Below, one piece after another: positions 1 to 44,912 of a DNA stretch of 64,000 bases (positions are counted from its first letter, which is position 1; every line of letters starts with the position of its first letter). The notes beneath the pieces are model-generated. The model had not been told where the DNA came from. It made no database searches and was given only the letters and a program-made list of their open reading frames with translations. The position numbers were made by a program, and so were the translations under genes. Source of the DNA: Mobula hypostoma (lineage: Eukaryota); contig NC_086107.1 of the NCBI RefSeq assembly GCF_963921235.1, forward strand, positions 95,730,001-95,794,000, in the 5' to 3' direction.

Positions 1-2450
1 CCAAATTCCTGCTGCGTCTGTGGAAGATCCTGAGAATCTTCTGGAGAAGGGGGAAGATCCCAGAACAGTGGAGAGTGGCTGAAAGGGTGTGGATCCCGAA
101 GGAGGGAAAATGCCACCCAGATAGATCAGTTCCGCATCATCTCCCTGCTGTGTGTCGAGGGGAAGATCTTCTTCAGTGCAGTTTCTAACCGGCTGTGCAC
201 CTACCTAGCAAAGAACACCTATATTGATACATCAGTCCAGAAGGGTGGCATTTCAGGGATGCCGGGCTGTCTGGAGCACATCGGTGTGGTGACACAGCTC
301 ATCAGGGAGGCCAGAGAGAACAAGGGCAACCTGTCAGTGTTGTGGCTCGACCTGGCAAATGCATACGGCTCCATTCCGCACAAGCTGGTGCAGCTCACAC
401 TGACCAAATATCACGTCCCCAGCAGAATCAGAGACCTTATCGCCGATTATTACAGCAACTTCAGGATGAGGGTCTCTTCAGGAGCAATTACATCAACCTG
501 GCACAAGGTGGAGATCGGTATCATCACAGGGTGCACTATCTCAGTGACACTGTTCTCCCTCACCATGAACATGCTCACTAAGTCTGCTGAGCCAGAGTGC
601 AGAGCGCACAGAATGAATTCCGCTCAATGGCAACCACCTATCAGGGCATTCATGGATGACCTCACAGTCACCACAGAATCAGTCCCAGGCTGCCGGAGGA
701 TTCTGCAAGGGCTCGAAAAGCTGGTGGAGTGGGCCCGGATGCGTTTCAAACCTGCCAAATCAAGATTGATGTTGCTGAGGAAAGGGAAGGTGGAGAACAA
801 GTTCCGGTTCAGCATCGCAGGCACAGCCATCCCAACCATCACAGAAAAGCCAGTCAAGAGCTTAGGCAAAGTTTTTGACAGCTCTTTAAGGGACACAACA
901 TCCATCCAGGCAACCTGCACCGAGTTGGATGGCTGGCTGAAATCTGTGGACAAGTCGGGCCTACCTGGGAAGTTTAAAGCCTGGGTGTATCAGCATGGCA
1001 TTCTTCCCAGAATCCTGTGGCCCCTCCTCATCTATGCAGTTCCGATCTCGACAGTCGAAACCTTAGAGAGGAGGGTTAGCAACCACCTCAGGAGATGGCT
1101 GGGGCTGCCAAAGAGCCTGAGCAGCATCGCACTCTATGGACACCACAACAAACTGCAACTGCCCTTCAAATCCTTGGAGGAAGAATTCAAGGTAACAAGA
1201 GCCAGAGAAGTGCTACAGTATAGGGACTCAAGTGACCCGAAGGTGGCTAGAGCAGGGATCCAAGTAAGTACTGGCAGGAAGTGGAGGGCAGAGGAAGCTG
1301 TTCAGGAGGCAGAGGCGAGGCTGCGTCACAAGAGGCTGGTGGGAGTGGTCACACAAGGCCGAGCTGGGCTAGGATCCTTTCCAACTCCCGAAATGGACAC
1401 CAGAGGGAAGGAAAGGCGTCGTCTAGTTCAGGAAGTGGTGAAAGCAGTAGTGGAGGAGATAAGAACCTGCAAGGCGGTGGGAATGAAGCAACAGGGAGCT
1501 TGGACAAGATGGGAGAATGTGGTTGAGAGGAAAGTGACCTGGGCTGATTTTTGGAAAGCTGAACCACACCGCATCCAATTTCTCATCCAGGCAGTGTACG
1601 ATGCACTTCCAAGCCCATCAAACCTGCACACATGGGGCAAGGCGGAGTCATCTGCGTGCCCACTGTGCTCCAAGCGAGGAACCCTGGAGCACATCCTCAG
1701 CGGCTGTGCAAGGGCACTTGGTGAGGGACGGTACCGATGGAGGCATGATCAGGTCCTGAAGACCATCGCTGAAGCCGGAGTTGAGTGGGCGAAGCGGTCC
1801 CGACCCTCCAAGCAGACCATTGCCTTTATCAGAGCTGGGGAGCAGCCAATGCCTGCCAAAAGAACATCTGCAGGCACCCTGACCTCTGCAAGGGACTGGC
1901 AGCTGTTGGTGGACGTCAAAGGGCAGCTGAAGTTCCCCAACCATATCGCAGCCACCACCCTGCGACCAGACATTGTCCTAGTGTCTGAGTCGACTAAGCA
2001 AGTGGTGCTGCTGGAGCTGACAGTCCCATGGGAAGATAGCTTGGAGGAGGCCTTTGAAAGGAAGCTCTCCAAGTACGCAGGACTGGTCAGCAACTGTCAG
2101 CAGGCTGGATGGAGAGCGAGGTGTCTCCCAGTGAAGGTTGGTTGTAGGGGATTCGTAGCCCATTCTTTAGTTAGAGCCTTCAGCATTTTGGGTATTGAGG
2201 GAGAGAGGAAGAGGAGAGCCATCCGCGGTACCACCGATGCGGCAGAGAGGGCCTCAAGATGGCTGTGGCTCAAAAGAGGGGAGCCATGGAGTCATAAGTA
2301 GCTAGCCATCTGGACACAAGCTGGGGTCTGATCAGCCCCGGCTGAGTAACCTGGAGGAGGTTGTATGATGTTGAAAGACCCGAAACACCCGATGATTCCA
2401 GGAACATCACTGAAGATGTATCCAGAAACATCAATAGATGTATGTACACA
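1..2450 (+). mobile_element. RLE-type non-LTR retrotransposon (HERO/R2-group-like), 3' part with 3' UTR
   Basis: ORF 259-2301 carries RT, CCHC and restriction-like endonuclease motifs. RT-like coding continues to the window start, with a frameshift near 105. A short hairpin-rich 3' UTR follows the stop. Confidence 0.9.
259..2301 (+). CDS. Reverse transcriptase + CCHC zinc finger + restriction-like endonuclease (5'-incomplete)
   Basis: WLDLANAYGS, IITGCTIS, FMDD (RT); CPLC..TLEHILSGC (CCHC); RWRHD and RPDI..LELTVPWE (PD-(D/E)xK RLE). Confidence 0.9.
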   Translation: MPGCLEHIGVVTQLIREARENKGNLSVLWLDLANAYGSIPHKLVQLTLTKYHVPSRIRDLIADYYSNFRMRVSSGAITSTWHKVEIGIITGCTISVTLFSLTMNMLTKSAEPECRAHRMNSAQWQPPIRAFMDDLTVTTESVPGCRRILQGLEKLVEWARMRFKPAKSRLMLLRKGKVENKFRFSIAGTAIPTITEKPVKSLGKVFDSSLRDTTSIQATCTELDGWLKSVDKSGLPGKFKAWVYQHGILPRILWPLLIYAVPISTVETLERRVSNHLRRWLGLPKSLSSIALYGHHNKLQLPFKSLEEEFKVTRAREVLQYRDSSDPKVARAGIQVSTGRKWRAEEAVQEAEARLRHKRLVGVVTQGRAGLGSFPTPEMDTRGKERRRLVQEVVKAVVEEIRTCKAVGMKQQGAWTRWENVVERKVTWADFWKAEPHRIQFLIQAVYDALPSPSNLHTWGKAESSACPLCSKRGTLEHILSGCARALGEGRYRWRHDQVLKTIAEAGVEWAKRSRPSKQTIAFIRAGEQPMPAKRTSAGTLTSARDWQLLVDVKGQLKFPNHIAATTLRPDIVLVSESTKQVVLLELTVPWEDSLEEAFERKLSKYAGLVSNCQQAGWRARCLPVKVGCRGFVAHSLVRAFSILGIEGERKRRAIRGTTDAAERASRWLWLKRGEPWSHK

Positions 2451-3325
2451 GCTTAAATATGTGCTGTGTGCCTCCCGGCTACCGTTGCATTCTCCGCGAA
2501 TCGGTACAGTATCTGTCCGGGGCCCAGGGGTTGGGACCACTGGGGTGGTGGGATACGGGGGTGTCATCTCATCATTGAACAGGGCAGGCAGCTCATCTTC
2601 TCTTATGACTGCCCGCCTCGATGTCGAAGGTCCAGGTTTGTCATCTGCTGTGGCTGATGTGGAAGGCTTGCTTGACTGCTGAGCCTCACGCATTTTTCTG
2701 TCACACAGTTCTTTGTAAGGACTCAAACCATCCTGCAAATATCCCCTAAACCTACGTACCCTTTCAAAATTAAAGTCGTACTTTATCATTGCAGTGAAAA
2801 TCTCACACAGTTGCTGGACGACTTCACTTTCGGTCCGTTCGCTACTGAATTTAGTTTCGATTGTTATCCTTTCCTCTTCCAATTGCATCAGCTCTTCATC
2901 TGGCAGTTCTTGGTCATGGGATGCCAAAACCTCTTCAACATCATCTTCGTCAACTTCCACAAGCCAAACTCACTTTGTCCTTGCTTCGTTCACCACGATT
3001 GAAACGTTTAATTATGTCTAGTTTTACGCTGTGTAACATCCTTACGAGCTCTTTCAGGCTTTTCTGACACCTTAGAACTCATCTTGCTAACGGCTGTTCA
3101 ATGCAACGTGTTTAAGCAATACCGGCGAGAATGCAGTTCCGAATCCGGGGGAGAGTGGCTGCTCGGGGCGCACTGCCCTTTATCACGTGCTGATTTTTTA
3201 TCGCACGCTGCCTTTCTTCGTGACAGTGAAAACACCTTCCGAAAGCGAAAACAGGGTACTAATGTAGGTCTTTCGTAACAGTGAGGTTTCATAAAGTGAA
3301 CGTTCGAAAAGCGGGGGAGCACCTG
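2451..3325 (-). mobile_element. Tigger/pogo-like DNA transposon deletion derivative
   Basis: Minus-strand terminus TA|CAGGTGCTCCCCCGCTTTTCGAACG. Acidic C-terminal transposase-like remnant EVDEDDVEEVLASHDQELPDEELMQLEEER. Confidence 0.65.
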
Positions 3326-3872
3326 TATCACAGAAACACATGACAAACCAAGACTGAAAAACTGACAAAACCACATAATTATAACATATAGTTACAACAG
3401 TGCAAAGCAATACCGTAATTTGATAAGAACAGACCATGGGCATGGTAAAGTCTCAAAGTCTCTCAAAAGTCCCATCATCTCACGCAGACGGTAAACCTCC
3501 AGCGCCGCAAACTTGCCGATGCAGCATCCTGGAAGCATCCGACCACAGTCCGACTCCGAGTCCGTCCGAAAACTCCGAGCCTCCGACCAGCTCTCCAACA
3601 CTGAGAACCGAGCACCATCTCTGCCGAGTGCTTCGACCCCGGCCCCGGCAACAGGCAATAGGCAAAGCCAAGGATTTGGGGCCTTCCCCTCCAGAGGTTC
3701 TCGATTGCGCAGTAGCAGCGGCAGCGAAGCGGGCATTTCAGAAGTTTCTCCAGATGTTCCTCCATGCTTCTTCATGTCTGTCTCTACCAAATCAGGATTG
3801 TGCACGGCATCCTACTTCACAGATACAATATCATTCGGAACGACCGTGCACGCTGTGTTGCGCCGCCATCTT
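3326..3872 (-). mobile_element. Non-autonomous LINE-derived/SINE-like element with AAGATGGCG 5' end
   Basis: Ends in GCCATCTT on the plus strand. Clearly related to the copy at 55645-56190. Confidence 0.55.
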
Positions 3873-5775
3873 CTGAAGATTATAAGGCTAGCAGGATGGA
3901 GCTTAAGAAAGAAATTAGGAGAGCTGGAAGGGACCATGAGAAGGCATTGGTGGACAGGATTAAGGAAAACCCCAAGGCATTCTACAAGTATGTGAAGAGC
4001 AAGAGGATAAGACGTGAGAGAATAGGACCAATCAAGTGTGACAGTGGAAAAGTGTGTATGGAACTGAAGGAGATAGCAGAGGTACTTAATGAGTATTTTG
4101 TTTCAGTATTCACTACAGAAAAGGATACCTTACAGTGAACTGAAAAGCTTGACCATGTAGGTATTGAGAAAGAAGATGTGCTGGGACTTTTGGAAAGCAT
4201 CAAGTTGGATGAGTCACCGGAACCGGACGAAATGTACCCCAGGCTACTGTGGGAGGTGAGGGAGGAGATTGCTGAGCCTCTGGCGATGATCTTTGCATCA
4301 TCAGTGGGGATGAGAGGGGTTCCAGAGGATTGGAGGGTTGTGGATGTTGTTCCATTGTTCAAGAAAGAGAGTAGAGATAGCTCAGGAAATATAGACCAGT
4401 GAGTCTTACTTCAGTGGTTGGTAAGTTGATGGAGAAGATTCTGAATTTATGAACAGAATTTATGAGCAGAATTTATGAACATTTGGAAAGGCGTAATATG
4501 ATTAGGAATAGTCAGCACGGCTTTGTGAAAGGCAGGTCATGCCTTATAAGCCTGATTGAATTTTTTGAAAATATGACTAAAAACATTGATGAAGGTAGAG
4601 CAGTAGATGTAGTGTATATGGATTTCAGGAAGGCATTGACAAGGTACCCGATGCAAGGCTTATTGAGAAAGTAAGGAGGCATGGGATCCAAGGGCATATT
4701 GCTTTGTGGATCCAGAAATGGCTTGCCCACAGAAGGCAAAGAGTGGTTGTAGACGGGTCATACTCTGCATGGAGGTTGGTCACCAGTGGTGTGCCTCAGG
4801 GATCTGTTCTGGGAATCCTGCTCTTCGTGATTTTTATAAATGACTTGGATGAAGAAGCAGAGGGATTGGTTAGTAAATTTGCTGATGACACAAAGGTTAG
4901 GGGAGTTGTGGATAGTGTGAAGGGCTGTCAGATGTTACAGCAGGACATTGATAGGATGCAAAATTGGGCTGAGAAGTGGCAGATGGAGTTCAACCCAGAT
5001 AAGTGTGTAGTGGTTCATTTTGGTAGATCAAATATGATGGCAGAATATGGTATTAATGGTAAGACTCTTGGCAGTGTGGAGGATCAGAGGAATCTTGGGG
5101 TCCGAGTCCATAGGACACTCAAACCTGCTGCGCAGATTGATTCTGTGGTTAAGAAAGCAAGCGGTGCATTGGCCTTCATCAATCTTGGGACTGAGTTTAG
5201 GAGCCGAGAGGTAATGTTGCAGCTCTACTGATCAAACCCCACTTGGAGTAGAGCTCAGTTCTGGTCACCTCACTCCAGGAAGGATGTGGAAACCATAGAA
5301 AGGGTGCAGAGGAGATTTACGAGGATGTTGCCTGGATTGGCAAGCATGCCTTATGAGAATAGGTTGAGTGAACTCGGCCTTTTCTCCTTGGAGCGACGGA
5401 GGATGAGAGGTGACCTGATAGAGGTGTATAAGATGATGAGAGGCATTGATTGTGTGGACAGTCAGAGGCTTTTTCCCAGGGCTGAAATGGCTAGCATGAG
5501 AGGGCACAGTTTTGAGGTGCTTGGGAGTAGGTACAGAGAAGATGTCAGGGGTAAGTTTTTTTTCGCAGAGAGTGGTGAGTGCGTGGAACGGGCTGCCGGC
5601 AACGGTGGTGGAGGCGGATACGATTGGGTCTTTTAAGAGACTCCTGGACAGGTATATGGAGCTTAGAAAAATAGAGGGCTATGGGTAACCCAAAGTAATT
5701 TCTATGGTAAGGACATGTTTGGCACAGCTTTGTGTGCTGAAGGGCCTGTATTGTGCTGTAAGTTTTCTATGTTTC
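3873..5775 (+). mobile_element. CR1 LINE, 5'-truncated and frameshifted ORF2 (RT)
   Basis: KENPKAFYKY, QHGFVKGRSC, GVPQGSVLG, KFADD, ERVQRRFTRM fragments; TTCTATG tail. Confidence 0.9.
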
Positions 5776-6386
5776 TTCCCAGTGAATCTCCTTTCACAGC
5801 CCATTCAGGAAGAGTGTTCCATTTCACAACTCTCTGCCTGAAAACATCTTTTCCTGGCCTCAGCACCTTGTCCTCTGCCAATGGAATTAATTTATCTGTA
5901 TTCTTCTGGTACATTTCAGATTGTGGTGCCTCTGTAAATCTCCTTCACTGTTCAAAGAACAAACCCAACTTCCCCAGACTCTACACAGTCCTCTAAATCA
6001 TCTTTCCAACCCTACCCGTCCTCCTGACCCTTGCTCAGTTACATCACTCTGCTCTCTCTGTCCTTCCACCTTTTCCCCTTCTCTGACCCACATCCAATGC
6101 TCTCTCTTTCTTGCCCTCAACCTCCACTTGCCTCCTTTATTGTGCCCTCCCCTCCTTACCCCTATTCCAGCCCTTCCTTGACTCCCATTCCCTCTGATGC
6201 ACTGTCCCCCGCTGACCCATTCATTCCCAACGTTAACCCCCAACTGTTGACTGCTTGGACCACCCACTGCCCACACCCTCCTCTGCTGGGCCCCTTCTCT
6301 CTTACACACAGAGCGCCAAATCCATCAATCCAGAGCCACTGTTTGAAATTATAAGGTATACAAGCAGGTAGTGTGTTTAAGAGGAA

Positions 6387-6392
6387 TTTATT
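6387..6392 (-). terminator. Polyadenylation signal of the PTH-like gene
   Basis: AATAAA on the minus strand about 90 nt after the TAA stop at 6482-6480. Confidence 0.7.
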
Positions 6393-6479
6393 GGCGTTCA
6401 GGAGCGAATCAGAAGTGTGAGAACAGAGACACCACCTGTCCGCGCTGGATGTCCGTGCTCCCTTGGTCTCTCCACCGCT

Positions 6480-6493
6480 TTAACTATTACATC
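6480..6493 (-). CDS. PTH-like gene: terminal coding exon ((G)CNS-stop)
   Basis: Acceptor ctcttcttgtccag|GA TGT AAT AGT TAA after a 103-bp intron, followed by AATAAA. Confidence 0.7.
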
Positions 6494-8105
6494 CTGGACA
6501 AGAAGAGTCACGTTTTAGTTTGAGAACTTGTCTATATTCTGTTAAAAAGTGAGAAGTAATTTTGTAAAAGCAAAACAGTTACTATGTCACACTGACCTGG
6601 CATATCAGGCGTCAGTCGGCACAGTTTCTCCTTAATATATTGTCTGCGTGCTTCTTCTTCCCTCGCCTTTGCTATTTCGTTCATTAGCACAATTTCAGCA
6701 GTTTCCCTCTTTGCTGCCTCGTTGGGGCCTGGCTTCAGAAAATCAGCGAACCAGCCATCGGCTGGGAGCTCCTCAATTATCTGGGCCCTAGACGTGGACA
6801 AAAACAGCCATCCTGAGCCTGCCAGTGAGGGAATCAGGCCTTGCGGAGTACTGTCTGCAGGAAGGGAAGGGTAGGGCACGGTGTGTCTAAATGGTGGAGG
6901 GTGTCAAAGTTTTGAAAGATGAGGGAAGTGAGGAGGATGAGGAACTGGCACCAATGGTTGGTGGACCAGATTGCCCACTCACATTGCAGCCATGGGGACC
7001 CCTTCACTACTGGCCCTCCATTTCAGGAGCATCCACCCAGGGGAGATGTATTTTATTCGTACTGCCAGTGTCAGTTCATACCTCCCACAATACTGCCTCA
7101 TGTTCCTGCACACCTCCCTCAGTATTGTTCCCTGACACTACCCACCTCCCTCAGAAATGCACACAAAAGCACTACACCACTCCCTCAGAACTGCCCCCTC
7201 TACTGCCCATCTCCCTCAGAACTGCCCCTGACACTGCCCACCTCCCACAGTAATGCCCACCTGTTGCTGAACAGCTCCCTCAGTACCGAGCTCCGGCAGT
7301 AGCCACTTTCCTGACTAATGCCCCGGACACTTCCCTCCTCCCACAGTATTGCCCCAGACACTTATCACCATCCTCCCCCCCCACCCCCCTCAGTACTACA
7401 ACCGTACACTGTCCACCCTCCTCAGTAATGCACTCAAGACACTGCTTCCATCCCGCACTACTGCCCCTGACATTGACTAACTCCTGATTACAGCACCCCC
7501 GCAGAAACTACACACCACCCTCTTAATGGTCCTCCGTTGCTGATCACCTCCCTTGTTACTGCCTCGCCCCAAGTCTGCCCCACTCCCTCAGCCCCGTGCA
7601 TTTTCGGAGCAATGGAAACGTCCTGTAAATTCTTGGTTCCAACTCTCTCCCAGGAAACTGTGTTGGAAGTGTTTGGCTTTGTCAAGTGTCAGTCTGATGC
7701 TCTTCATAACAACTGACACGTGTCAATCACAGAGTGCCTGACGATGAGACAAATATCTCTGTCAGGGCCTGTTTTATGTCTCCCCTGGTTTCCCACAATG
7801 CACTTGGTTAGGCCCCCGAGGGATTCAACCACCTTTTTGTGAGTTAAGACCACCAGCACTTCCTCTCTCTTCTCGTGGACATGATCCAAGCTATCACTAT
7901 TCTCTCCCTGAATTCCCGAGCTCCCATGACCTTCTCCACATTTAATACAGACGGCACGTGGGCAACAACAACTGTTGCTGAGGGGATTTTACCTCTCTGA
8001 GTGTCGAGCCGAGGCAGGAACAGCTTCAGCACACGGGGGTAGGATACAGCTCAGTCCCAGTACCAGTCCCATCAGCAGCACTCGAGCATAGGACCAAGGC
8101 TCCAT
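6480..8105 (-). CDS. Parathyroid-hormone-family prepropeptide, 105 aa, spliced: join(8105-7993, 6787-6597, 6493-6480)
   Basis: Canonical GT-AG introns with pyrimidine tracts and matching phases (2, then 1). Protein: MEPWSYARVLLMGLVLGLSCILPPCAEA-VPASARHSERAQIIEELPADGWFADFLKPGPNEAAKR-ETAEIVLMNEIAKAREEEARRQYIKEKLCRLTPDMPGCNS*. Mature part matches PTH1-28 at E4, I5, L7, M8, K13, R20, K27, L28. Confidence 0.85.
6597..6787 (-). CDS. PTH-like gene: pro-region + KR + mature peptide exon
   Basis: Acceptor ctgtttttgtccacgtctag|G, donor CCAG|gtcagt; 191 bp. KR codons at 6711-6706; mature peptide starts at 6705. Confidence 0.85.
7075..7500. repeat. Degenerate C-rich tandem repeat in a PTH-like gene intron
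   Basis: Recurring cctccc(t/a)cagta..gcccc.gacact units. Confidence 0.6.
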
Positions 8106-8108
8106 GAC
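7993..8108 (-). CDS. PTH-like gene: signal-peptide exon (ATG at 8105-8103)
   Basis: Acceptor ttgtttctctcacag|GTCATGG (good Kozak context) and donor GAG|gtaaaa. Hydrophobic core VLLMGLVLGLSCIL and A-E-A cleavage motif. Confidence 0.85.
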
Positions 8109-9172
8109 CTGTGAGAGAAACAAGAAACAACGGCCTGAATGTTCGTTTCAGGCCCGCGGTAAAACACAGGGCAGGTTGGGGCTGCAGCTTGTGTGAAACC
8201 AGTGGAGTTACATTCTGCCAACGGGACTGGTTCTTCCTCAAGGATGTAGCTGGCAATCGTGGCTGATCCACTTTCCTCTCAACCCCATTCTCCTGGCCTC
8301 TTCCTATAACCTTTCATGCCCTAACTAATCATGAACCTATCAACCTCTGCCTTAAATACACCCAATGACCTGGCCTCCACAGCCACCTGTGGCAACGAAT
8401 TCCACAGATTTGTCATCGTCTAGTTACAGAAATTCCTCCTTATCTCTGTTCTAAATGAATGTCCCTCTATTCTGAGGTTGTGCCCTCTTGCTTGACCGTC
8501 CCCCACTATAGGAAACATCCTCTCCATATCCACTCTATCTAGGTCTTTCAATATTTAATGAGATCCCTCCTCATTCTTCTAAATTCCAGCGAGTTCAGGC
8601 CCAGAACCATCAAATTCATGAACTTCTGGCATAATACTACTGTTTTCCACAGTGAAGACTAATGCAAAATATTTATTTAGTTCATCTGTCATTCCTTTGT
8701 CCCCCATTACTACCTCTCCAGCATTATTTTCCAGTGGTCTGATATCTACTCTCGCCTCCCTTTTACTCTTTATGTATTTGAAAATAAAAAAAGTTTGATA
8801 TCCTCTTTGATATTATTGGCTTGCTTACCTTCATATTTCATCTTTTCCCTCCAGTAGGCTATTTAGTTGCCTTCTGTTGGTTTTTAAAAGCTTCCCACTA
8901 ATGTTTGTTCTATGATGTGCCCTCTCTTTTGCTTTTCTGATGGATTTGACTTCCCATGTCAGCCATGATTGTGTCATTTTGCCTTTAGAATACTACTTGT
9001 TTTTTGGGATACTGTATATCAAGCCTGTGTCTTCCAGATTGTTCTCAGAAACTCCAGCCATTGCTGCTCTGCCATCATCCCTGCTAGTGTTCCCTCCCAA
9101 TCAAATTTGGCCAGCTCCTCTCTCATGTCCCTGTAATTCCCTTAACTCCATAATACTGATACATTTGACTTT

Positions 9173-13410: not shown

Positions 13411-13654
13411 TGCTCTTCGCCCCACACGTCTCCTTTAAACTTTCACTCTTACCTACATGTTCTCTAGTATTTGACATTTCTACCTTGGGGAAAAAGATAT
13501 TCTGACTGTCTCCCCTACTTATGACTCTCTAATTGTGTATTTCACAATTCCACTCAGATCCCCACTCAGTCCTTGCTTCTTCAGAAAAAACAAATTAACT
13601 GGTCCTTGGTCCATCCTGCTGACAGTGGGTAGCACATGGGAGACTGGGATTCAG

Positions 13655-14195
13655 TTCCCTGATTGGGAAGAGCTGACTGGTGAGCTCACACTTGGAGTAT
13701 TGTGTATACTCTCCTGATTGGGAGAGAGTTGGGTGGTGAGACCACATTGGAGTAATGTGTATACTTTCCTGATTGGGAGGGAGTTGGGTGATGAGACCAC
13801 ATTGGAGTAATGTGTATACTTTCCTGATTGGGAGGGAGTTGGGTGGTGAGATTGTATTGGAGTATTGTGTATACTCTCCTGATTGGGAGAGTGTTGGGTG
13901 GTGAGACCATATTGGAGTATTGTGTATACTTCCCTGATTGGGAGAGAGTTGGGTGGTGAGACCATATTGGAGTAATGTGTATACTCTTCTGATTGGGAGA
14001 GTGTTGGGTGGTGAGACCATATTGGAGTAATGTGTATACTTCCCTGTTTGGGAGAGAGTTGGGTGGTGAGACCATATTGGAGTAATGTGTATACTCTTCT
14101 GATTGGGAGAGTGTTGGGTGGTGAGACCATATTGGAGTAATGTGTATACTTTCCTGATTGGGAGGGAGTTGGGTGGTGAGATTGTATTGGAGTAC
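13655..14195. repeat. 55-bp minisatellite, ~9-10 units
   Basis: Unit start recurs every 55 bp (gattg at 13716, 13771, 13826, 13881 ... 14156). Unit: gattgggagagagttgggtggtgagaccatattggagtaatgtgtatactctcct. Confidence 0.95.
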
Positions 14196-14289
14196 TTTAT
14201 AGTGGTGTATAAAATCATGAACTGTATAGATAAGGTGAACTCACAAAGTCTTATTCCTGCGTTGTGGCAAGACGTACTCCTGTCCTCTA

Positions 14290-14862
14290 CCATCTTTGCA
14301 ATAAAGGTCGTCTAAAACTTTGGCAAACTTCTATAGATGTGCAATGGAGAGTATTACTGTCGGGTTGCATCACAGGCTGGAATGGTAGCGCCAATGACCA
14401 TGAATGGAAAATTCTACAAAATGTAGTAGATACGGCCCAGTCCATCACAGGTAGAGCAACCCCCACAATTCATTGAGCACACCTACAAGGAGCGCTGTTG
14501 AAGGAAAGTAGCATCCATTATCAAGGCCATGCTCTCTTCTCACTGCTGCCATCGGAAAGGAGGTACAGGAGCCTTCCGTCTCTACTACCAGGTGCAGGAA
14601 CAGTTATTACCCGTCAACCATCAGGCTCCGGAACCAGAGTGGATAACTTCACTCACACCTATTGTCACACTTTCATGGACTCTACAACTCATGTTCTCAA
14701 TATGAATTTATTTATTATTATTTTGTGTTTTTTTCTCTTTTTGTATTTGCACAATTTGTTGCCTTTTGCACATTGCTTGTTTTTCATCGATTCTAGTGTG
14801 TTTCTTTGCCTTTACTTCGACTGCCCGCAAGAAAATGAATCTCAGAGTTGAACTTGAACTTT
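14290..14862 (+). mobile_element. Rex1/Babar-like LINE 3' fragment
   Basis: LSGCITGW and HALFSLLPS.RRYRS remnants; aagaaaatgaatctcag...(cttgaa)n tail. Confidence 0.7.
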
Positions 14863-17890: not shown

Positions 17891-20744
17891 CTGGAGGTAT
17901 CTACATAGTCATTCAAACAAACGCAAAGTTCACGACAGACAAATGGCAAGAGAATTAGAAACATAGAAACATAGAAAATAGGTACAGGAGTAGGCCATTT
18001 GGCCCTTCGAGCCTGCACCGCCATTCAGTATGATCATAGCTGATCATCCAACTCTGAACCCTGTACCAGCCTTCCCTCCATACCCCCTGATCCCTTTAGC
18101 CACAAGGGCCATATCTAACTCCCTCTTAAGTATAGCCAATGAACTGGCCTCAACTGTTTCCTGTGGCAGAGAATTCCATAGATTCACCACTCTCTGTGTG
18201 AAGAAGATTTTCCTCATCTTGGTCCTAAAAGGCTTCCCCTTTGTCCTTAAACTGTGACCCCTCGTTCTGGACTTCCCCAACATCGGGATCAATCTTCCTG
18301 CATCTAGCCTGTCCAATCGCTTTAGGATTTTATACGTTTCAATAAGATACCCCCTCAATCTTCTAAATTCCAGCGAGTATAAGCCTAGTCGATCCAGTCT
18401 TTCATCATATGAAAGTCCTGCCATCCCAGGAATCAATCTGGTGAACCTTCTTTGTACTCCCTCTATGGCAAGAATGTCTTTCCTCAGATTAGGGGACCAA
18501 AACTGCACACAATACTCCAGGTGTGGTCTCACCAAGGCCTTGTACAACTGCAGTAGTACCTCCCTGCTCTTGTACTCGAATCCTCTTGCTATGAATGCCA
18601 GCATACCATTCGCCTTTTTCACCACCTGCTGTACCTGCATGCCCACTTTCAATGACTGGTGTATAATGACACCCAGGTCTCATTGCACCTCCCCTTTTCC
18701 TAATTGGCCCCCATTCAGATAATAATCTGTTTTCCTGTTTTTGCCACAAAAGTGGATAACCTCACATTTATCCACATTAAATTGCATCTGCCATGAATTT
18801 GCCCACTCACCTAACCTATCCAAGTCACCCTGCATCCTCTTAGCATCCTCCTCACAGCTAACACTGCTGCCCAGCTTCGTGTCATCCGCAAACTTGGAGA
18901 TGCTGCATTTAATTCCCTCATCTAAGTCATTACTATATATTGTAAACAACTGGGGTCCCAGCACTGAGCCTTGCGGTACCCCACTAGTCACTGCCTGCCA
19001 TTCTGAAAAGGTCCCGTTTATTCCTACTCTTTGCTTCCTGTCTGCCAACCAATTCTCTATCTACATCAATACCATTCCCCCAATACCGTGTGCTTTAAGT
19101 TTGCACACTAATCTCCTGTGTGGGACCGTGTCAAAAGCCTTTTGAAAATCCAAATATACCACATCCACTGGTTCTCCCCCATCCACCCTACTAGTTACAT
19201 CCTCAAAAAATCCTATGAGATTCGTCAGACATGACTTTCCTTTCACAAATCCATACTGACTTTGTCCGATGATTTCACCACTTTCCAAATGTGCTGTTAT
19301 CACATCTTTGATAACTGACTCTAGCATTTTCCCCACCACCGACGTTAGGCTAATCGGTCTATAATTCCCCGGTTTTTCTCTCCCTCCTTTTTTAAAAAGC
19401 GGGGTTACATTAGCCACCCTCCAATCCTCAGAAACTAGTCCAGAATCTAAAGAGTTATGAAAAATTATCACTAATGCATCCACTATTTCTTGGGCCACTT
19501 CCTTAAGCATTCTGGGATGCAGACCATCTGGCCCTGGGGATTTATCTGCCTTTAATCCCTTCAATTTACCTAATACCACTTCCCGACTAACATGTATTTC
19601 CCTCAGTTCCCCCATCTCACTAGACTCTCGGTCCCCTACTATTTCCGAAAGGTTATTTATGTCCTCTTTAGTGAAGACAGAACCAAAGTAGTTATTCAAT
19701 TGGTCTGCCATGTCCTTGTTCCCCATGATCAATTCACCTGTTTCTGACTGTAAGGAACCTACATTTGTCTTAACCAAACTTTTTCTTTTCACATATCTAT
19801 AAAAGCTTTTACAGGTTCCCTGCCAGTTTTCTCTCGTAATTTTTTTTTTCCTTTCCTAATCAGATTTCCTCGTGTTTGAGATTTACCAGGGTACTGCCTG
19901 GTTTAGCGGGTATGGATTTTGATCAGAGATTAAGGGAGCTAGGGCTTTACTCTTTGGAGAGGAGGAGGATGATAGGATACATGATAGAGGTGTACAAGAT
20001 ATTAAGAGGAATAGATAGAGTGGATAGCCTTCGCCTCTTCCCCAGGGCACCACTGCTCAATACGAGGGGACATGGCTTTAAGGTAAGGGGTGGGAAGTTC
20101 AAGGGGGATATTAGAGGAAGGTTTTTTACTCAGAGAGTGGTTGGTGCGTGGAATGCACTGCCTGAGTCAGTGGTGGAGGCAGATACACTAGTGAGGTTTA
20201 AGAGACTACTAGACAGGTACATGGAGGAATTTAAGGTGGGGGGTTATATGGGAGTCAGGGTTTCAGGGTCGGCACAACATTGTGGGCTGAAGGGCCTGTA
20301 CTGTGCTGTACTATTCTATGTTAAACCCTTTGTCCTCTTCTGCTGGACTCTGAATTTCTCCCAGTCCTCAGGTGTGCTGCTTTTTCTGGCTAACTTGTAT
20401 GTTTCTTCTTTGGAATTGATACTATCCCTAATTTCCCTCGTCAGCCATGGGTGCACTACCTTCCCTGGTTTATTCTTTTTCCAAACTGGGATGAACAATT
20501 GTTGTAGTTCATCCATGCGATCTTTAAATGCTTGCCATTGCATATCCACCATCAACCCTTTAAGTATCATTTGCCAGTCTATCTTAGCTAATTCATGTCT
20601 CATACCTTCAAAGTTCCCTCCTCAAAATTATGTGCTGATGGGTCCATATTTTGGTGTGATGTCAGAACGCTGGTGCAGCTGGTGGACCCACAGAACCCTG
20701 CTATCAGACGCACCGTTGACTCAATAAACTCCAAGCACAGTAAG
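17891..20744 (+). pseudogene. GYS: Glycogen synthase pseudogene, exon-2 equivalent, split by a CR1 insertion (17891-17957 and 20626-20744)
   Basis: Acceptor tttctgtctccag|; GGIYIVIQTNAKFTTDKWQENY/VLMGPYF, frameshift, DVRTLVQLVDPQNPAIRRTVDSINSKHSK, versus recalled GYS1 [49 protein letters not shown]. Donor is mutated (AAG|ct). AATTA flanks the insertion on both sides. Confidence 0.9.
17958..20620 (-). mobile_element. CR1 LINE (5'-truncated ORF2) with a nested opposite-strand CR1 3' end at ~19877-20320
   Basis: ORFs 19061-19792, 18680-19048 and 18044-18652 carry RT motifs (YLDFQKAFD, GVPQGSVLGP, FADD); (TTCTATGT)n tail. Confidence 0.92.
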
Positions 20745-28189: not shown

Positions 28190-29420
28190 TGCATTATGAT
28201 ATGCAAGGAGGAGATTGGCAAGCTCCTGATTCAGCGTCAGTGCAGTGTGTTCTGCCAACATTTCTCACAGTGCGTTCTTTAGACTCTGGACAAACTTTCT
28301 GCCAAACCATGGTACGGTGCAGATGTAATGTGTCTAATTCCATTCATTTTCAGGAATGGCTGGAACTGCTCCTCAACAAACTGTGGTCCATTTTGCGCAC
28401 CAGATCTTGTAAAGAGGCCTCTCAACACATCTACAGTGTGTGAGGCTGTTGGGCACACTTCTGGCCACTTTGTAGCTGCATCCATTACTGCCAAGAAATT
28501 TGTGCCCATGAATGGTCCAACAAAATCCACATGTGTTATCTGCCAGGGCAATGCAGGCCATTCCCAGGGATGGACAGGGCAGCTCTTGGCATCTTTTGTG
28601 AAGTGTTGGCATCTCAACCAGTGCATGACAAACAGTTCGATCTGCTGATCTATCCCAGGCCACCAGACAAAGCTTTGAACCAACAAAAATGGCTGTCTAG
28701 TAGCTCCTCCAGCACTTTAGGTCCCGGTTTGGATGGTAATGACAACTCTCAATTCTCCGCATAAGGCAAACCCCAACAAGGCCAAGTTCATCCTGGCACT
28801 GATTTGCATCAGGGAGAATGTATCAAGAGGAATGTCCTCTTTTGTAAATTTTTCAGGTATTTCCTTTTCTAAGGATAGACAGGACAATCCATAGGCATTT
28901 CCATGATTAGTTGTCCTCTTGAATCCAATCTTGTAATTGCATCCTCCAAGAAACAGAGCCCATCTCTGCATTTGTGTTGTTGCTGTTGGTGGAATTCTGT
29001 GGATTGAAACTGGACACTTGTGGTTGGTCAGTAATGAGCATAAACTCTCTCCATACAAGTACTGGTTGAAACGTTTTACACCCCAAACCAAACTCAAGGC
29101 TTCTCCATCGATCTGTTCATAACTTTTCTCTGCAGCGGTAAAGGAACGTGATGCAAAAGGCTCTGGGGCATTCACTTCCATCACTCATAACACGTGACAT
29201 GGTGGCGCCTATACATTTGGTATAGATATAGGCACTTTCACAGGCAAGTTTCACTGGATGATGTGGATAATAATGTGTCAGTACTGTGTCTGATATCGCC
29301 ATTTCCTTTATCTTTTGGAAAGCCACCTCACACTGCTTTGTCCATTGCCATTTCTTCCCAATCTGTAGTAATGAGTTGAAGGGGTAGAACACAGTCGCTA
29401 ATTTGGCAGGAACCTGTTCT
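28190..29420 (-). mobile_element. Gypsy pol fragment (RNase H + integrase), decayed
   Basis: FASRS...EKSYEQIDGEALSLVWGVKRF; VWWPGID, HVDFVGPF, NGIRHITSAPYH. Confidence 0.85.
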
Positions 29421-30344
29421 ATATTCCATGTTCTGTGTGGTGTTATAGAAAGGATGTCAATAAGCAAGAAAGAGTGGAAAGAAGACTTGTGAACTTGAGG
29501 GCCTGACTTAAAGGGAAAGATTGGGCAGACAAGGATTTTAAGCCTTGGAGCATACGAGACAGAAATGTTACCTTACAGAGGTCTATAAAACCATGAGGGA
29601 CAGAGATGAGTGAACACACACAGACTTTTCCCAGGGAAAAGGGAAACAAAGACTGGAAAACATGTGTTTAACTTGAGAAGAAAAAGATTTAAAAGGGACT
29701 CGGGGTGGGGGGGGGGAGTCAACTTCTTTAAGCAGTGGCTGGTGAGTATATGGAATGAGCTGTCAGGAAGTGGTTGAGGCAGATACAATAATAACATTCA
29801 AAAGGCACCTGGACAGGTACGTGGATAGGAAATGTTTAGAGGAATATGGTCATCTTGGATGAGTTGGGCCAAAGGGCCTGTTTCTGTGCTGTATAAGTCT
29901 ACATCTCCATCCTTTCTCCCTCTGTCTGCCCTTTCCTCTGCTGCTGTAACCATCATTTGTGCCTTTGTTACCTGGAGCTGACTGTTTTAGCCACCCTCCT
30001 TCTTCCCTCCATCTCAAGAGGTCCTGCCACCCAGCCCTCTAATTCCCATCACCATTTACACATCTTATCCCTCTCCTCACCAATCCTCATCATTCCTGGT
30101 TCAGCAGAGCCTCAGTTTTAAAATTACTATCCTTGATTTTCCGAATCCTCTCTGATCTCTTTGCTCCGTCAGGCCACAAATTCTCCATGATTTCTCGCCT
30201 CTCTTGATTCTGGGCTCTGAACATCTCCAAATGTCAGTCCCCAGGACCCGTGAACTGGGATTCCCACCCCAATCCTCTCAGATGCTCCTGAAATGCCAAA
30301 GTTCCAAACAGTGCCTTATCAGAAATGGAAGGATGTTAACACAC

Positions 30345-39252: not shown

Positions 39253-41866
39253 CCCTCATCCACTTGTTTCTTGAACCAACTGGCACAACCCTGATAAATA
39301 CAGCTATAGCAGTACAGTAAAACTGGACCATCTTACATTATAATGGACCTTCTAATTTTGGTTCTAATGGTATTCTCTTTTGTAAATAAATGTCTATTTT
39401 TGTTTACTTTATGTTTTTGTTGTGAAGATTGTGTCTCTGATGCTGCTACGGATAAGCTTTTCTTTGTGCATATACCTCATCAAACTTTTGCACGTGTCGA
39501 TAAACTTGACTTGACTTTAAAGCTTGCGCCTTACTTCATGAGATGCAAAGTGGCCTAGCTGAGAGTTCTGCTGCCTCACAGTCCAGTGACCTGAGTTCAG
39601 TTCTGCTGTCTGAGTGGAGTTTGCATGCTCTCCCTGTGACCCCATGCTTTTCCCCTATATACTCCAAATTCTCCCCAGATCCCAGAGAGAAACGGCTGGG
39701 TGGGTTAACTTGGCTGCTGTAAGTTCACCCTGGTTCAGTGGTGATGGGACTGTGTTGGAATAGTGTCAAGGTCAGCACAGAATCAGTGGGCCGAAGGGCC
39801 TGTTTCTGCATTGGCATTCCTGCTCATCACTCGGTCAAGCTCGTTCTCTCACCTCACACGATCAGGAAAAGCTGCGATCCTGGGTTTCCTGTGTTTCCCA
39901 TGAATGACTAAAGCAGAGCAAATGGCCCCTGTCTGCTGCTCACACTGGCCCCGGCGGCTGGTTCACTGCTCAGGGACAACGCCGTCGCGTCTGTCAGTCT
40001 ACCCGAAGGAGCGGGTGTTGCAGGCAGGAGCGCACTGAGTGTTGAGAGTGCAAGCGTGTGCTCGCCCAGCTGGAGAGGTGTGCCAGCAACAGCTCGCGTA
40101 GATGAACAGAGTTGTAACTAGAATTTATTTAGATTCACAAAGTCGTATAGCAGGGAAACGGGCCATTCGGCCCGACTGATCCATGCTGACCAAGGAGCAT
40201 CCTTGAGCAAAACTCCATTCCCCATGTTAGTCCCTGATACATTCCTATCCATGTACCTGTCTAAATATATTTTAATCATTGTAATTGTACCTGCCTCTCC
40301 CACTCCCCTGGCAGAACCTTCCATCCCCACTGCCCTCTTGTGGAAAAACTTTCCCTTTAAATTATTCTCCTCTCTCCTTAAGCCTGTGTCCTCTAGTTTA
40401 GACTCTCTGGGGAAAAAGCTGACCATTCATCTTACCTGTGCCCCTCAAGACTTATAAACCTCTACAAGCTCACCCTTCAAACTCCTTCACTCCAAGGAAA
40501 ACAGTCCAAACTATTCAGTCTCCCCTTATAACTGAGTGCTCTAGTCCCAGCAATTTCCTTAGCAACATAGAAGTCCACAGCACATTACAGGCCCTTCGGC
40601 CCACAATGTTATGCCGACCATGTAACCTACTCTAGAGACTGCCTAGAATTTCCCTACCGCACAGCCCTCTATTTTCCTAAGCTCTATGTACCTATCTAAG
40701 AGTCTCTTAAAATATCTTATTGTATCCTTGTGAAACTTTTCTGCTTCCTGTCTACCTCAGCCACATCCTTCCTATACTGTGGCACACAGAACTGCGCAGT
40801 GTTCCAGTGTGTGGTCTCAACAAATGAGTGAGCAAGTACACTCTCGCGGTCAATAAGTGTGTAAAGAGGAGCCCGCTGTCAGTGGGTGTGTACGGAGGAA
40901 CTCACTCTCAAGGTGTGTAAGTTCTGTCAGTGGGTGTGTAAGGAAGCGCTCACTGTCAGTGGGTGTGTAAGGAAGTTTTGCAGCCTCCAGATCTTCATTA
41001 CAGGGTTAAAATTGAATATTTAATGGAGAAAGTCTGATCTAAAGTGATATTTAAAGCTGTTGATTCATGTAACAAATCTCAGTAAAGATACTTCGAGATG
41101 ACACGCGACTGTCTTTCAAAAGCAGTTGTTATTAAATTGAAATTTGTTTGAAAATATCAGTAATCATTTTAACTAGTAACTCAGCCAGGAACTTCCAATT
41201 ATCCACCCACTGGGGTCAGACACCCACTACGAGGACATCAGCCAGGCCCCGAGCTCAGTCACCTATTAATGCAGATATTTCACTTGCTCTGAGAGTGAAG
41301 ATGAGAGCGATTATTTAATCATTGCTAATCCTGCCAAAAAGCACCCAAGGTAAACAATGGGACAGTTACTGATGAATTGAAATTAGTCCTGAAGAGGTGC
41401 TCATCGGAACGCTGTCTCCACAGTGAAACCTGCTGAAAGCAGCAATTAACCAGAGCAAAATGACAAGACTTTGATGTGAAAATGAACTCCAGTGAATCAT
41501 TCGACAGGATCTGTCTCTCCAGAGAGGAATGAAACAAAATAATTAACTTGTCAGAGCAGGAGGAAAACTTTCTCCATCTTTGTAAGTACAAAATATTTCA
41601 ACAAAATTCACTGCAAAACATCCCCCCTCACCCGAACCTCCTACGCCTCAGCTCAACCTGTTACCCTCAGTGCAACCTGTTACCTCATTCTAACCTGTTA
41701 TCGCTTACCTCAAAAAATGCTGGAAGAACCCAGCCAGTCAAACCACATTTGTGAAAAAGGAACCCAGTGTTTCAGCTCAAGGACCCTTCCTCAGAACCAG
41801 GTGGGCGACAGTTTTTTTTAAGCAGTGGGTGTGGGGGTGTAGGAGTGAGGTGTAAAACAAACATCT

Positions 41867-44483
41867 ATAGAACATAGAAAACTTACAGCACAATACAGGC
41901 CCTTCAGCCCACAAAGCTGTGCCGAACATGTCCTTACCGTAGAAATTACTAGGCTTACCATAGCCCTCTATTTTTCTAAGCTCCATGTACCTATCCAGGA
42001 GTCTCTTAAAAGACCCTATTGTATCCAACTCCACCACCGTTGCTGGCAGCCCATTCCACGCACTCACCACTCTCTGCATAAAAAACTTACCCCTGACATC
42101 TCCTCTGTACCTACTTCCAAGCACCTTAAAACTGTGCCCTCTCACGCTAGCCATTTCAGCCCTTGGAAAAAGCCTCTGACCGTCCACACGATCAATGCCT
42201 CTCATCATCTTATACACCTCTATCAGGTCACCTCTCATCCTCTGTCGCTCCAAGGAGAAAACATAGAAACATAGAAAATAGGTGCAGGAGTAGGCCATTC
42301 GGCCCTTCGAGCCTGCACCGCCATTTATTATGATCATGGCTGATCATCCAACTCAGAACCCAGCCTTCCCTCCATACCCCCTGACCCCTGTAGCCACAAG
42401 GGCCATATCTAACTTCCTTTTAAACATAGCTAATGAACTGGCCTCAACAGTTTGCTGTGGCAGAGAATTCCACAGATTCACCACTCTCTGTGTGAAGAAG
42501 TTTTTCCTAACCTCGGTCCTAAAAGGCTTCCCCTCTATCCTCAAACTGTGATCCCTCGTTCTAGACCTCCCCAACATCGGGAACAATCTTCCCGCATCTA
42601 GCCTGTCCAATCCCTTTAGGATCTTATACGTTTCAATCAGATCCCCCCTCAATCTTCTAAATTCCAACGAGTACAAGCCCAGTTCATCCAGTCTTTCTTC
42701 ATATGAAAGACCTGCCATCCCAGGAATCAATCTGGTGAACCTTCTTTGTACTCCCTCTATGGCAAAGATGTCTTTCCTCAGATTAGGGGACCAAAACTGC
42801 ACACAATACTCCAGGTGTGGTCTCACCAAGGCCTTGTACAACTGCAGTAGTACCTCCCTGCTCCTGTACTCAAATCCTCTCGCTATAAATGCCAGCATAC
42901 CGTTCGCCTTTTTCACCGCCTGCTGTACCTGCATGCCCACTTTCAATGACTGGTGTATAATGACACCCAGGTCTCGTTGCACCTCCCCTTTTCCTAATCG
43001 GCCACCATTCAGATAATAATCTGTTTTCCTATTTTTGCCACCAAAGTGGATAACTTCACATTTATCCACATTAAATTGCATCTGCCATGAGTTTGCCCAC
43101 TCACCCAACCTATCCAAGTCACCCTGCATCCTCTTAGCATCCTCCTCACTGCTAACACTGCCACCCAGCTTCGTGTCATCCGCAAACTTGGAGATGCTGC
43201 ATTTAATTCCCTCATCCAAGTCATTAATATATATTGTAAACAACTGGGGTCCCAGCACTGAGCCTTGCGGTACCCCACTAGTCACCGCCTGCCATTCTGA
43301 AAAGGTCCCGTTTATTCCCACTCTTTGCTTCCTGTCTGCTAACCAATTCTCCACCCACACCAATACCTTACCCCCAATACCGTGTGCTTTAAGTTTGCAC
43401 ACTAATCTCCTGTGTGGGACCTTGTCAAAAGCCTTTTGAAATTCCAAATATACCACATCCACTGGTTCTCCCCTATCCACTCTACTAGTTACATCCTCAA
43501 AAAATTCTATGAGATTCGTCAGACATGATTTTCCTTTCACAAATCCATGCTGACTTTGTCCGATCATTTCACCGCTTTCCAAATGTGCTGTTATCACATC
43601 CTTGATAACTGACTCCAGCAGTTTCCCCACCACCGACGTTAGGCTAACCGGCCTATAATTCCCCGGTTTCTCTCTCCCTCCTTTTTTAAAAAGTGGAGTT
43701 ACATTAGCCACCCTCCAATCCTCAGGAACTAGTCCAGAATCTAACGAGTTTTGAAAAATTATCACTAATGCATCCACTATTTCTTGGGCCACTTCCTTAA
43801 GCACTCTGGGATGCAGACCATCTGGCCCTGGGGATTTATCTGCCTTCAATCCCTTCAATTTACCTAACACCACTTCCCTACTAACATGTATTTCGCTCAG
43901 TTCCTCCATCTCACTGGACCCTCTGTCCCTTACTATTTCTGGAAGATTATTTATGTCCTCCTTAGTGAAGACAGAACCAAAGTAATTATTCAATTGGTCT
44001 GCCATGTCCTTGCTCCCCATAATCAATTCACCTGTTTCTGTTTGCAGGGGACCTACATTTGTCTTTATCAGTCTTTTCCTTTTTACATATCTATAAAAGC
44101 TTTTACAGTCCGTTTTTATGTTCTCTGCCAGTTTTCTCTCATAATCTTTTTTCCCCTTCCTAATTAAGCCCTTTGTCCTCCTCTGCTGAACTCTGAATTT
44201 CTCCCAGTCCTCAGGTGAGCCACTTTCTCTGGCTAATTTGTATGCTTCTTCTTTGGAATTGATACTATCCCTAATTTCTCTTGTCAGCCACGGGTGCACT
44301 ACCTTCCTTGATTTATTCTTTTGCCAAACTGGGATGAACAATTGTTGTAGTTCATCCATGCAACCCAAGTTCACTCGACCTGTTCTCATAGGCATGCTCC
44401 CCAATCTAGGCAACATCCTTGTAAATCTCCTTTGCACCCTTTCTATGGTTTCCACATCCTTCCTTTGGTGAGGCGACCAGAAC
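41867..44483 (-). mobile_element. Nested CR1s: a young 5'-truncated CR1 (~42258-44362, open RT frame) inserted into another CR1 3' fragment
   Basis: ORF 42353-44518 has complete RT motifs. Its N-terminus (FWSPHQRKDVETIERVQRRF) belongs to the host CR1, which resumes at 42257-41867. Confidence 0.9.
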
Positions 44484-44912
44484 TCATCTCCTTCTACCTT
44501 AGGCCATGAACTTATCAATCACCCCTGATGAGTTATTAACTTCGAACTTTCTGCATAATCATTCAAAGAGTTGAACTGCACATGCATGTAACTCATATAA
44601 CTCATTTCCTTCTACCTTACGCCACAAACTTGTCAATCACCTCTGCTGTGGACACCTTCTGGAGGTCTAAGATCGTATGCTCTACGACCACTGGACTTAG
44701 TGTGTAAATGTAGGAGGGGACTATGTTGAAAAATAAAAGAGCTAGGTTTTCTAAAATTGACTCCTTCTACCTTAGGCCACAAACCTATCAATCACCCCTT
44801 GTGTGTAGTTTAGCACCCCCATTATTTTTTTTGTAATTAACATTTTATTTATATTAGTGTTACTTAAATTTATTGGTGAGATACTGTTTTTTTAAATTGT
44901 ATTTACCCTGTC

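Follow-up and report, generated by a model that had tools for sequence, protein, structure and literature searches.

Does a short spliced gene in the genome of Mobula hypostoma encode a peptide hormone of the parathyroid hormone (PTH) family, and from which gene did it descend? The gene lies in a 64,000-nucleotide stretch of contig NC_086107.1 (the window; positions 95,730,001 to 95,794,000 of assembly GCF_963921235.1), with all of its features on the minus strand. In the coordinates used here the window is C45:95730001-95794000 of the 3.48-Gb assembly, C45 being a chromosome-scale contig of 117 Mb. A sequence-only reading of this DNA had proposed an intact spliced gene for a PTH-family peptide that was thought to be unlike TIP39. 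We find that the gene is real, spliced and transcribed, and that it is almost certainly a paralogue, that is, a diverged duplicate, of the TIP39 (PTH2) gene, which lies 59 kb away. The PTH-family assignment itself holds by descent, through homology to TIP39. For the whole reading, in which this TIP39 paralogue encodes a helical peptide that is released by processing and serves as ligand for a PTH-type receptor, we give a probability of about 0.7.

The TIP39 gene was located with the Pfam TIP39 model (PF14980, cut-off 27 bits). Of 38 candidates scored in the genome nine were matches, and only one, at C45:95800101-95800244 (+) with 62.9 bits, exceeded the cut-off, placing the TIP39 locus 6 kb past the window end. 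The translation of its exon 2 (P0004) scored 61.1 bits with the same model (E 9.5e-17) and matched the human TIP39 chain 7f16_P of PDB entry 7F16 (E 6.7e-6). The peptide gene and the TIP39 gene are arranged head-to-head with their start codons 58.9 kb apart, and within the window only retroelement remains were found between these two codons. BLASTN comparison of the two loci revealed a 5' block, window 8258-7738 against C45:95796890-95797406 (+), with 95.0% identity over 521 bp. The signal exons inside this block (window 7993-8108 and C45:95797040-95797155) are identical at 114 of 116 bases and differ by one amino acid. Homology continues through the end of intron 1 and its acceptor, with 72-80% identity in short colinear matches and a shared motif just ahead of the common exon start, and through the end of the pro-region (68%, BLASTN). 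At the other end, window 6430-5775 matches the 3' untranslated region (3'UTR) and flank of TIP39, with 76% identity across 705 bp in one alignment and 81.4% across 533 bp in another, and this 3' flank has two copies in the genome, those of the peptide gene and TIP39. At the protein level, BLASTP of the translated main exon (P0001) against P0004 gave 29.6 bits and an E value of 7e-7, with 17 of 49 residues identical from the pro-region through the Lys-Arg (KR) cleavage site to peptide residue 31, and a single two-residue gap just after KR. This protein alignment was preferred because MAFFT, when it aligns the two peptide exons globally, misplaces the middle owing to a large pro-region deletion. 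Collectively, the BLASTP match and the DNA homology of signal exon, acceptor, 3'UTR and flank place the gene in the PTH superfamily by descent. The pro-region of the TIP39 precursor would itself be unusually long, about 115 residues, if the homologous acceptor is used (C45:95799816-95800247).

The structure of the peptide gene was resolved by reading the window together with assembled contigs from four sequencing runs, which were compared with window positions 5900-8400. Runs X1 and X2 come from one study (P1) of organism A, and run X3 comes from a second study (P2) of organism B, a second species. The features, all on the minus strand and in window coordinates, are as follows.

7738..8258, minus strand: 5' duplicated block that runs from 150 bp of upstream sequence through the signal exon into intron 1, common to the TIP39 gene and a third copy described below
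8110-8109, minus strand: acceptor AG upstream of the signal exon; the X1 and X3 contigs start their exon piece at 8108
7993..8108, minus strand: signal-peptide exon, with coding sequence 8105-7993 (codons 1-37 plus 2 nt), followed by a phase-2 intron
8105, minus strand: start ATG, with G at -3 and G at +4
6788..7992, minus strand: first intron within the coding region (intron 1), 1205 bp, GT..AG, spliced out in the X1 and X3 contigs
6597..6787, minus strand: main coding exon, with the pro-region, KR, mature residues 1-36 and the first base of codon 37
6711-6706, minus strand: KR codons, inside the main coding exon
6705-6597, minus strand: mature-peptide part of the main exon, as translated in P0001
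6494..6596, minus strand: intron 2, 103 bp, GT..AG, spliced out in the X1, X2 and X3 contigs, with no TIP39 counterpart
6375..6493, minus strand: terminal exon, with the last four codons including the second cysteine (6493-6483), then the stop and 3'UTR
6482-6480, minus strand: stop TAA, from the sequence
6392-6387, minus strand: polyadenylation signal AATAAA, from the sequence
5775..6430, minus strand: end of the 3'UTR and downstream flank, homologous to the TIP39 3'UTR and flank

A pyrimidine tract and acceptor AG stand ahead of 6787 and a donor GT follows directly after 7993, and the exons joined by coordinate give a 318-nt coding sequence for a 105-residue protein. The three coding exons, splice sites, Kozak-type ATG and AATAAA of the sequence-only reading were thus all correctly placed. 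Its first exon, however, begins at 8108 behind the acceptor AG at 8110-8109 and is not the first exon of the gene.

Splice joints were counted as bridged only with at least 31 letters on each side. By this measure X1, X2 and X3 each have one contig that crosses the joint 6493|6597, and X1 and X3 each have one that crosses 6787|7993, where the shorter side has 117 letters; X2 reaches 6787|7993 with 25 letters on one side only, below the threshold. Both joints singled out for confirmation by the sequence-only reading are therefore bridged, across three runs, two studies and two species. No cover of the peptide gene was found in the fourth run, X4. The three pieces of X1 and the two of X2 show no differences from the window over the pieces displayed, and X3, from organism B, departs from it at 14 of the 426 transcript bases that align. 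The contig ends fall at 6381 in X2 and at 6375 in X3, 6-12 nt beyond AATAAA. The run type, "RNA?", is a guess, and no listed run holding the sequence is recorded as RNA; nevertheless, the contigs are read as spliced products, because the main coding exon is single-copy in a genome-wide nucleotide search and its introns are skipped exactly at GT..AG. The X1 and X3 contigs carry a further 163 and 112 bases at the 5' side, outside 5900-8400, and these bases together with the AG at 8110-8109 show that an upstream 5' exon exists. A symmetry comparison of the upstream regions of the two genes, made for the position of this exon, returned retroelement matches only.

The 105-residue precursor consists of a signal peptide, a 35-residue pro-region (37 residues had been proposed), KR at K64-R65 and a 40-residue peptide. 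In a Kyte-Doolittle profile judged by eye, the signal has a hydrophobic core at residues 9-22 and an end of the A-x-A type at residue 28. Single-sequence AlphaFold2 prediction of P0001 gave one helix over its residues 21-58; the mean pLDDT is 77, and residues 31-50 reach 95. The predicted helix corresponds to mature residues 1-31 and is followed by a non-helical, Pro-rich tail. The mature peptide contains two cysteines, Cys29 and Cys38, and has a net charge of about -1 by hand count on the sequence as first proposed. The precursor thus appears to follow the plan of the PTH superfamily, in which a signal, a pro-region and a dibasic site precede a predicted helical peptide of about 34-40 residues. 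In line with the original proposal, the exons, splice joints and precursor plan of an intact gene for a secreted prohormone-like protein are borne out.

To understand what changed after duplication, the peptide gene was compared with TIP39 feature by feature. The signal exons of the two genes are nearly identical, the phase-2 intron falls at the same place with the same acceptor, and the 3'UTR and flank are homologous. Each precursor has a long pro-region ending in KR, with the peptide at the C terminus (36 residues in TIP39 and 40 here), and the C-terminal halves of the peptides can be aligned (Arg, aromatic, Ile/Leu, Lys, Leu/Ile, Arg-Leu). In contrast, the pro-region of the peptide gene is 35 residues long, compared with about 115 in the TIP39 gene of this genome; the peptide is two residues shorter behind the cleavage site; the hydrophobic mid-helix of TIP39 is swapped for a charged stretch; and a serine of TIP39 is replaced by Cys29, so that the peptide has two cysteines, Cys29 and Cys38, and TIP39 none. 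No cysteine was found in the four canonical PTH peptides of this genome, in this TIP39 or in the PDB chains compared. The TIP39 peptide exon runs through its own stop into the 3'UTR without an intron, whereas the peptide gene no longer has that stop codon and has gained an intron and a terminal exon of four codons. The frame beyond the old stop enters about 200 nt that are absent from TIP39, comprising the 103-nt intron and the four final codons including Cys38; this inserted sequence is unique in the genome except for one 80-nt match at 78%. The exons of a TIP39 gene are labelled here as the 5', signal and peptide exons; the passages cited from PMC4354418 give their number, three. In the peptide gene an upstream 5' exon exists and the signal and peptide exons are homologous to those of TIP39, while its extra intron and fourth exon lie outside the three-exon plan.

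The loss of two residues bears directly on how the peptide compares with PTH. TIP39 aligns with PTH at an offset of two residues; through the two-residue loss after KR the peptide comes into the register of PTH and PTHrP. Peptide shuffles (100,000) were used to evaluate ungapped alignments anchored at KR, as in the PTH-style alignment of the sequence-only reading; helical periodicity is not preserved in the shuffles and the p values below are generous. Against the four canonical PTH-family peptides encoded in this genome the alignment scored 11-34 at 28 residues, with p values of 1e-5 to 3e-3 and a p value of 1e-5 for the sum over all four, and so outscored the shuffles in every case; for the KR-anchored matches without a stated length the p values span 1e-5 to 7e-3. 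Against TIP39 the peptide gave a p value of 0.6 unshifted, and of 4e-4 at 28 residues and 5e-5 at 34 residues when shifted by two. Glu4 aligns at the sequence level with Glu4 of PTH peptides and with Asp6 of TIP39. According to the passages cited from PMC10166269, an N-terminal acidic residue common to the ligands of the PTH family makes contact with the core of the receptor. Toward the C terminus the peptide holds Arg20, Tyr23, Ile24, Leu28 and Leu31.

These features can be joined in a single proposed history. An inverted segmental duplication of TIP39 would have produced a head-to-head, lineage-specific paralogue. In its product, signal cleavage would fall after residue 28, and a prohormone convertase would cut after K64-R65 to free a 40-residue peptide, helical over about residues 1-31. 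The loss of two N-terminal residues would set the peptide in the PTH/PTHrP register from the cleavage site, with the acidic residue 4 kept along with a C-terminal receptor-binding pattern of Arg20, an aromatic residue at 23, Ile/Leu24, Leu28 and Leu31. Read-through of the old stop into new, intron-bearing sequence would have added the tail, and Cys38 of this tail could close a C-terminal disulfide loop with Cys29, which is a serine in TIP39; such a loop would be new among the family members compared. The helical peptide would then act, as agonist or antagonist, on a PTH-type class B1 receptor. PTH2R is the first candidate, because it is the receptor of the parent gene, and PTH1R and PTH3R are possible because the N terminus is PTH-like. 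It is probable that the gene encodes a functional secreted peptide; that this peptide is a ligand of a PTH receptor we consider an even proposition. An extended version, in which the gene encodes an old, undescribed elasmobranch hormone with flanks homogenised by conversion, a PTH-register peptide, a disulfide-closed C-terminal cap and either a preference for PTH1R or PTH3R in place of PTH2R or antagonist activity, seems unlikely.

Comparison within the genome and with organism B suggests that different parts of the gene have had different histories. The signal exons of the two paralogues differ at 2 of 116 positions within this genome, whereas 5 of 117 positions differ between the window and the orthologous signal exon in organism B. 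Paralogues that are closer to each other than orthologues are the signature of concerted evolution. The main exon behaves in the opposite way: organism B shows 6 differences in 191 aligned bases (about 97% identity), compared with 52% nucleotide identity over 47 alignable codons between the peptide parts of the paralogues. For these parts the Nei-Gojobori method gave a nonsynonymous divergence (dN) of 0.67 and a synonymous divergence (dS) of about 1.3, the latter a soft figure owing to alignment error and the small sample. The high identity between species, set against the low identity between paralogues, suggests that the divergence of the peptide exon is old and has since been held. Five of the six differences in exon 2 of organism B could be placed: the pro-region has three amino-acid changes and one silent change, and the mature part has one silent change. 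The pro-region of organism B also contains an extra in-frame piece of 30 nt, or ten residues, six of which match a TIP39 pro-region segment by hand translation, with 12 consecutive bases identical to TIP39 DNA by eye. Given the resemblance of this piece to TIP39, the Mobula hypostoma genome has undergone a further deletion in the pro-region. The pattern of substitution favours constraint on the mature peptide, as far as few events and one close relative allow. The simplest reading of these sequence comparisons would be an old duplication in which the flanks were repeatedly homogenised and the peptide exon escaped conversion.

A third copy of the signal-exon block lies at C45:95380536-95381113 (-), about 357 kb from the peptide gene, and is 93-94% identical to both genes. 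It keeps the ATG, the full exon and the GT donor, and aligns at 93% over C45:95380662-95381113. Among the 40 matches listed for the 5' block, three bear the exon and its upstream sequence, which has no further copy in the genome, and the other 37 cover an intronic repeat only. Blastn, tblastn and acceptor-motif searches within 21 kb downstream of the third copy found neither a peptide exon resembling TIP39 or P0001 nor a homologous acceptor. The third copy may be an orphan exon or the head of another unrecognised gene.

Several observations weigh against the reading as a whole. Pfam, including the Parathyroid and TIP39 models, gave no match at E values up to 10 for P0001, for the translation of the signal exon (P0002) or for a 123-residue open frame; the sequence-only reading had named the Parathyroid profile as a check. 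The peptide locus is likewise absent from the nine genome matches of the TIP39 model and from the four genome matches, out of seven candidates scored, of the Parathyroid model (PF01279, cut-off 22 bits); as a control, the neighbouring TIP39 gene scores 61-63 bits with the TIP39 model. The charged mid-helix is unlike that of TIP39 or PTH peptides. Divergence from TIP39 is much higher in the peptide part than in the flank (raw difference of 19-24%) or in the 5' block (5%). The peptide part has therefore had a history unlike that of the flanks, and this comparison taken alone leaves room for relaxed constraint. The only orthologue comes from one close relative, and its unchanged mature part reflects very few events; furthermore, one exon-2 difference and two terminal-exon differences in organism B are unplaced, and one of them could hit the coding tail or a cysteine. 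As the 5' exon is unplaced, an in-frame start further upstream is possible. The receptor-binding pattern depends on positions 20, 23, 24, 28 and 31, which we take to be the ectodomain-binding face of PTH and PTHrP from structures of the PTH1R ectodomain.

Relatives of the peptide were sought in protein collections. Word-indexed protein searches at near and longer lengths found no relative, and a search with a 40-residue stretch of the signal exon found no match, not even a TIP39 precursor. These blank word searches say little about novelty, because no TIP39 precursor was found and the collections probably lack this species. An exhaustive phmmer search over 1.84 billion protein representatives returned no match at E values up to 0.001, the ESM Atlas gave no usable match for the peptide, and phmmer against PDB sequences gave only a chance ribosomal match (E 1.7). 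Other families of secreted peptides and proteins were considered by eye. These were melanin-concentrating hormone, which has an equal ring size and a last exon that splits the peptide, corticotropin-releasing factor/urotensin-I, Gla proteins and frog-type antimicrobial precursors. They were set aside for want of Pfam support, on ring or motif residues that disagree, and on the net charge of about -1.

The alternative that survives best is that the gene does encode a functional secreted peptide, but one that acts away from PTH-type receptors, either on another receptor or as a non-hormonal secreted factor. The rewriting of the N-terminal activation region and the mid-helix, the added cysteine-bounded tail, unseen in the family members compared, and the failure of any family model to recognise the peptide are consistent with such a change of role. 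However, the C-terminal half aligns with TIP39 residue by residue, the N terminus anchored at KR is nearer to canonical PTH peptides than shuffles are, and a net charge of about -1 speaks against a cationic antimicrobial peptide. We therefore regard this alternative as improbable.

A little less probable again is a transcribed but functionless young duplicate, in which promoter and signal exon are kept by gene conversion, the peptide exon drifts and the open frame is a leftover. High divergence of the peptide part from TIP39 (dN 0.67-0.85), the failure of the family models, the lost stop codon and the pro-region deletions would all be expected of such a gene, and the third signal-exon copy, with no detectable peptide exon, indicates that partial or dead duplicates occur here. 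Against this, the frame, KR, both new splice sites and the polyadenylation signal are intact, and the receptor-binding pattern and predicted helix are retained. A second species has this structure as well, and there the placed changes fall in the pro-region (three amino-acid changes and a 10-codon indel) and the mature part has one silent change. Identity of the peptide exon of about 97% between species and about 52% between paralogues also points to an old divergence that has since been held.

The remaining alternative concerns the canonical PTH-type genes of this genome, which are recognised by the Pfam Parathyroid model.

C36:26754001-26754315: PTHrP-like canonical gene with an MHD-type N terminus
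C45:4079768-4079908 and 4093486-4093650: tandem pair of canonical genes 14 kb apart, with MHD-type N termini
C5:122163356-122163478: canonical gene with an MHD-type N terminus

The MHD-type motif (Ser-Val-Ser-Glu-x-Gln-x-Met/Leu-His-Asp) is found in all four of these genes and is absent from the peptide, which carries Glu4, Leu7 and Met8 but has Asn-Glu where the motif has His-Asp. The peptide is like PTH, PTHrP, PTH-L and PTH4 in its register, in Glu4, Leu7 and Met8, in a basic residue 13, and in Arg20, an aromatic residue at 23 and Leu28. It differs from them in lacking MHD, Gln6, His9, Gly12 and a Pfam match, and in its descent via TIP39, which in the passages cited also lacks MHD (PMC4354418). 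The same passages describe MHD in all elephant-shark PTH peptides, including Pth2, a putative PTH-L that groups with PTH-L; like the peptide gene, elephant-shark Pth2 belongs to the PTH family in a cartilaginous fish and has an intron ahead of KR (PMC4354418). Its counterparts in Mobula hypostoma lie among the four MHD-bearing loci and do not include the peptide gene, so that the orthology to elephant-shark Pth2 offered by the sequence-only reading falls away. The notion that the gene is a canonical PTH-type paralogue, an orthologue of elephant-shark Pth2 or of PTH-L/PTH4, could draw on the KR-anchored alignment to PTH-type peptides that outscores shuffles and on the presence of a tandem PTH-like pair on the same contig, but with that pair 91.6 Mb from the peptide gene and TIP39, MHD in all four Pfam-Parathyroid genes and not in the peptide, and DNA-level homology to TIP39 and not to the canonical genes, it is refuted as far as present data go.

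Mobula hypostoma therefore appears to have an extra member of the PTH family, and the peptide gene is a new member of the superfamily with unusual derived features and a secure origin. A review describes a single PTH2 gene in vertebrate genomes other than those of birds, in the passages cited (PMC5640766). In the literature searched, nothing describes a second gene of the TIP39 type in cartilaginous fish; the search did not cover public annotations, where an automatic name is possible. If the extended version is correct, in which receptor preference has changed or the peptide is a natural antagonist, the gene would represent a second, independent route to a PTH-like ligand. The locus offers a clean natural example of a peptide-hormone gene remade after duplication: conversion keeps the signal exon nearly identical, the bioactive exon escapes it and diverges past profile detection, a two-residue deletion moves the register, and the loss of a stop together with a new intron adds a cysteine-bounded tail. 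It also indicates that profile-based annotation can miss such genes, and it provides comparative endocrinologists with a concrete 40-mer to try on the PTH receptors of cartilaginous fish.

The surroundings of the gene had been described as decayed neighbouring genes. Instead, they consist of retroelement remains: 8 of the 11 long open reading frames of the window that were scanned match reverse transcriptase, endonuclease, integrase or RNase H. At window 13595-14311, on the minus strand, three overlapping open frames of 181-238 residues, the 238-residue one without a Pfam match, encode a tandem repeat of a unit of about 40 residues. The retroelement remains fill much of the window, at 1-5700, 18000-20700, 28200-29600, 41700-44600 and 48300-51200.

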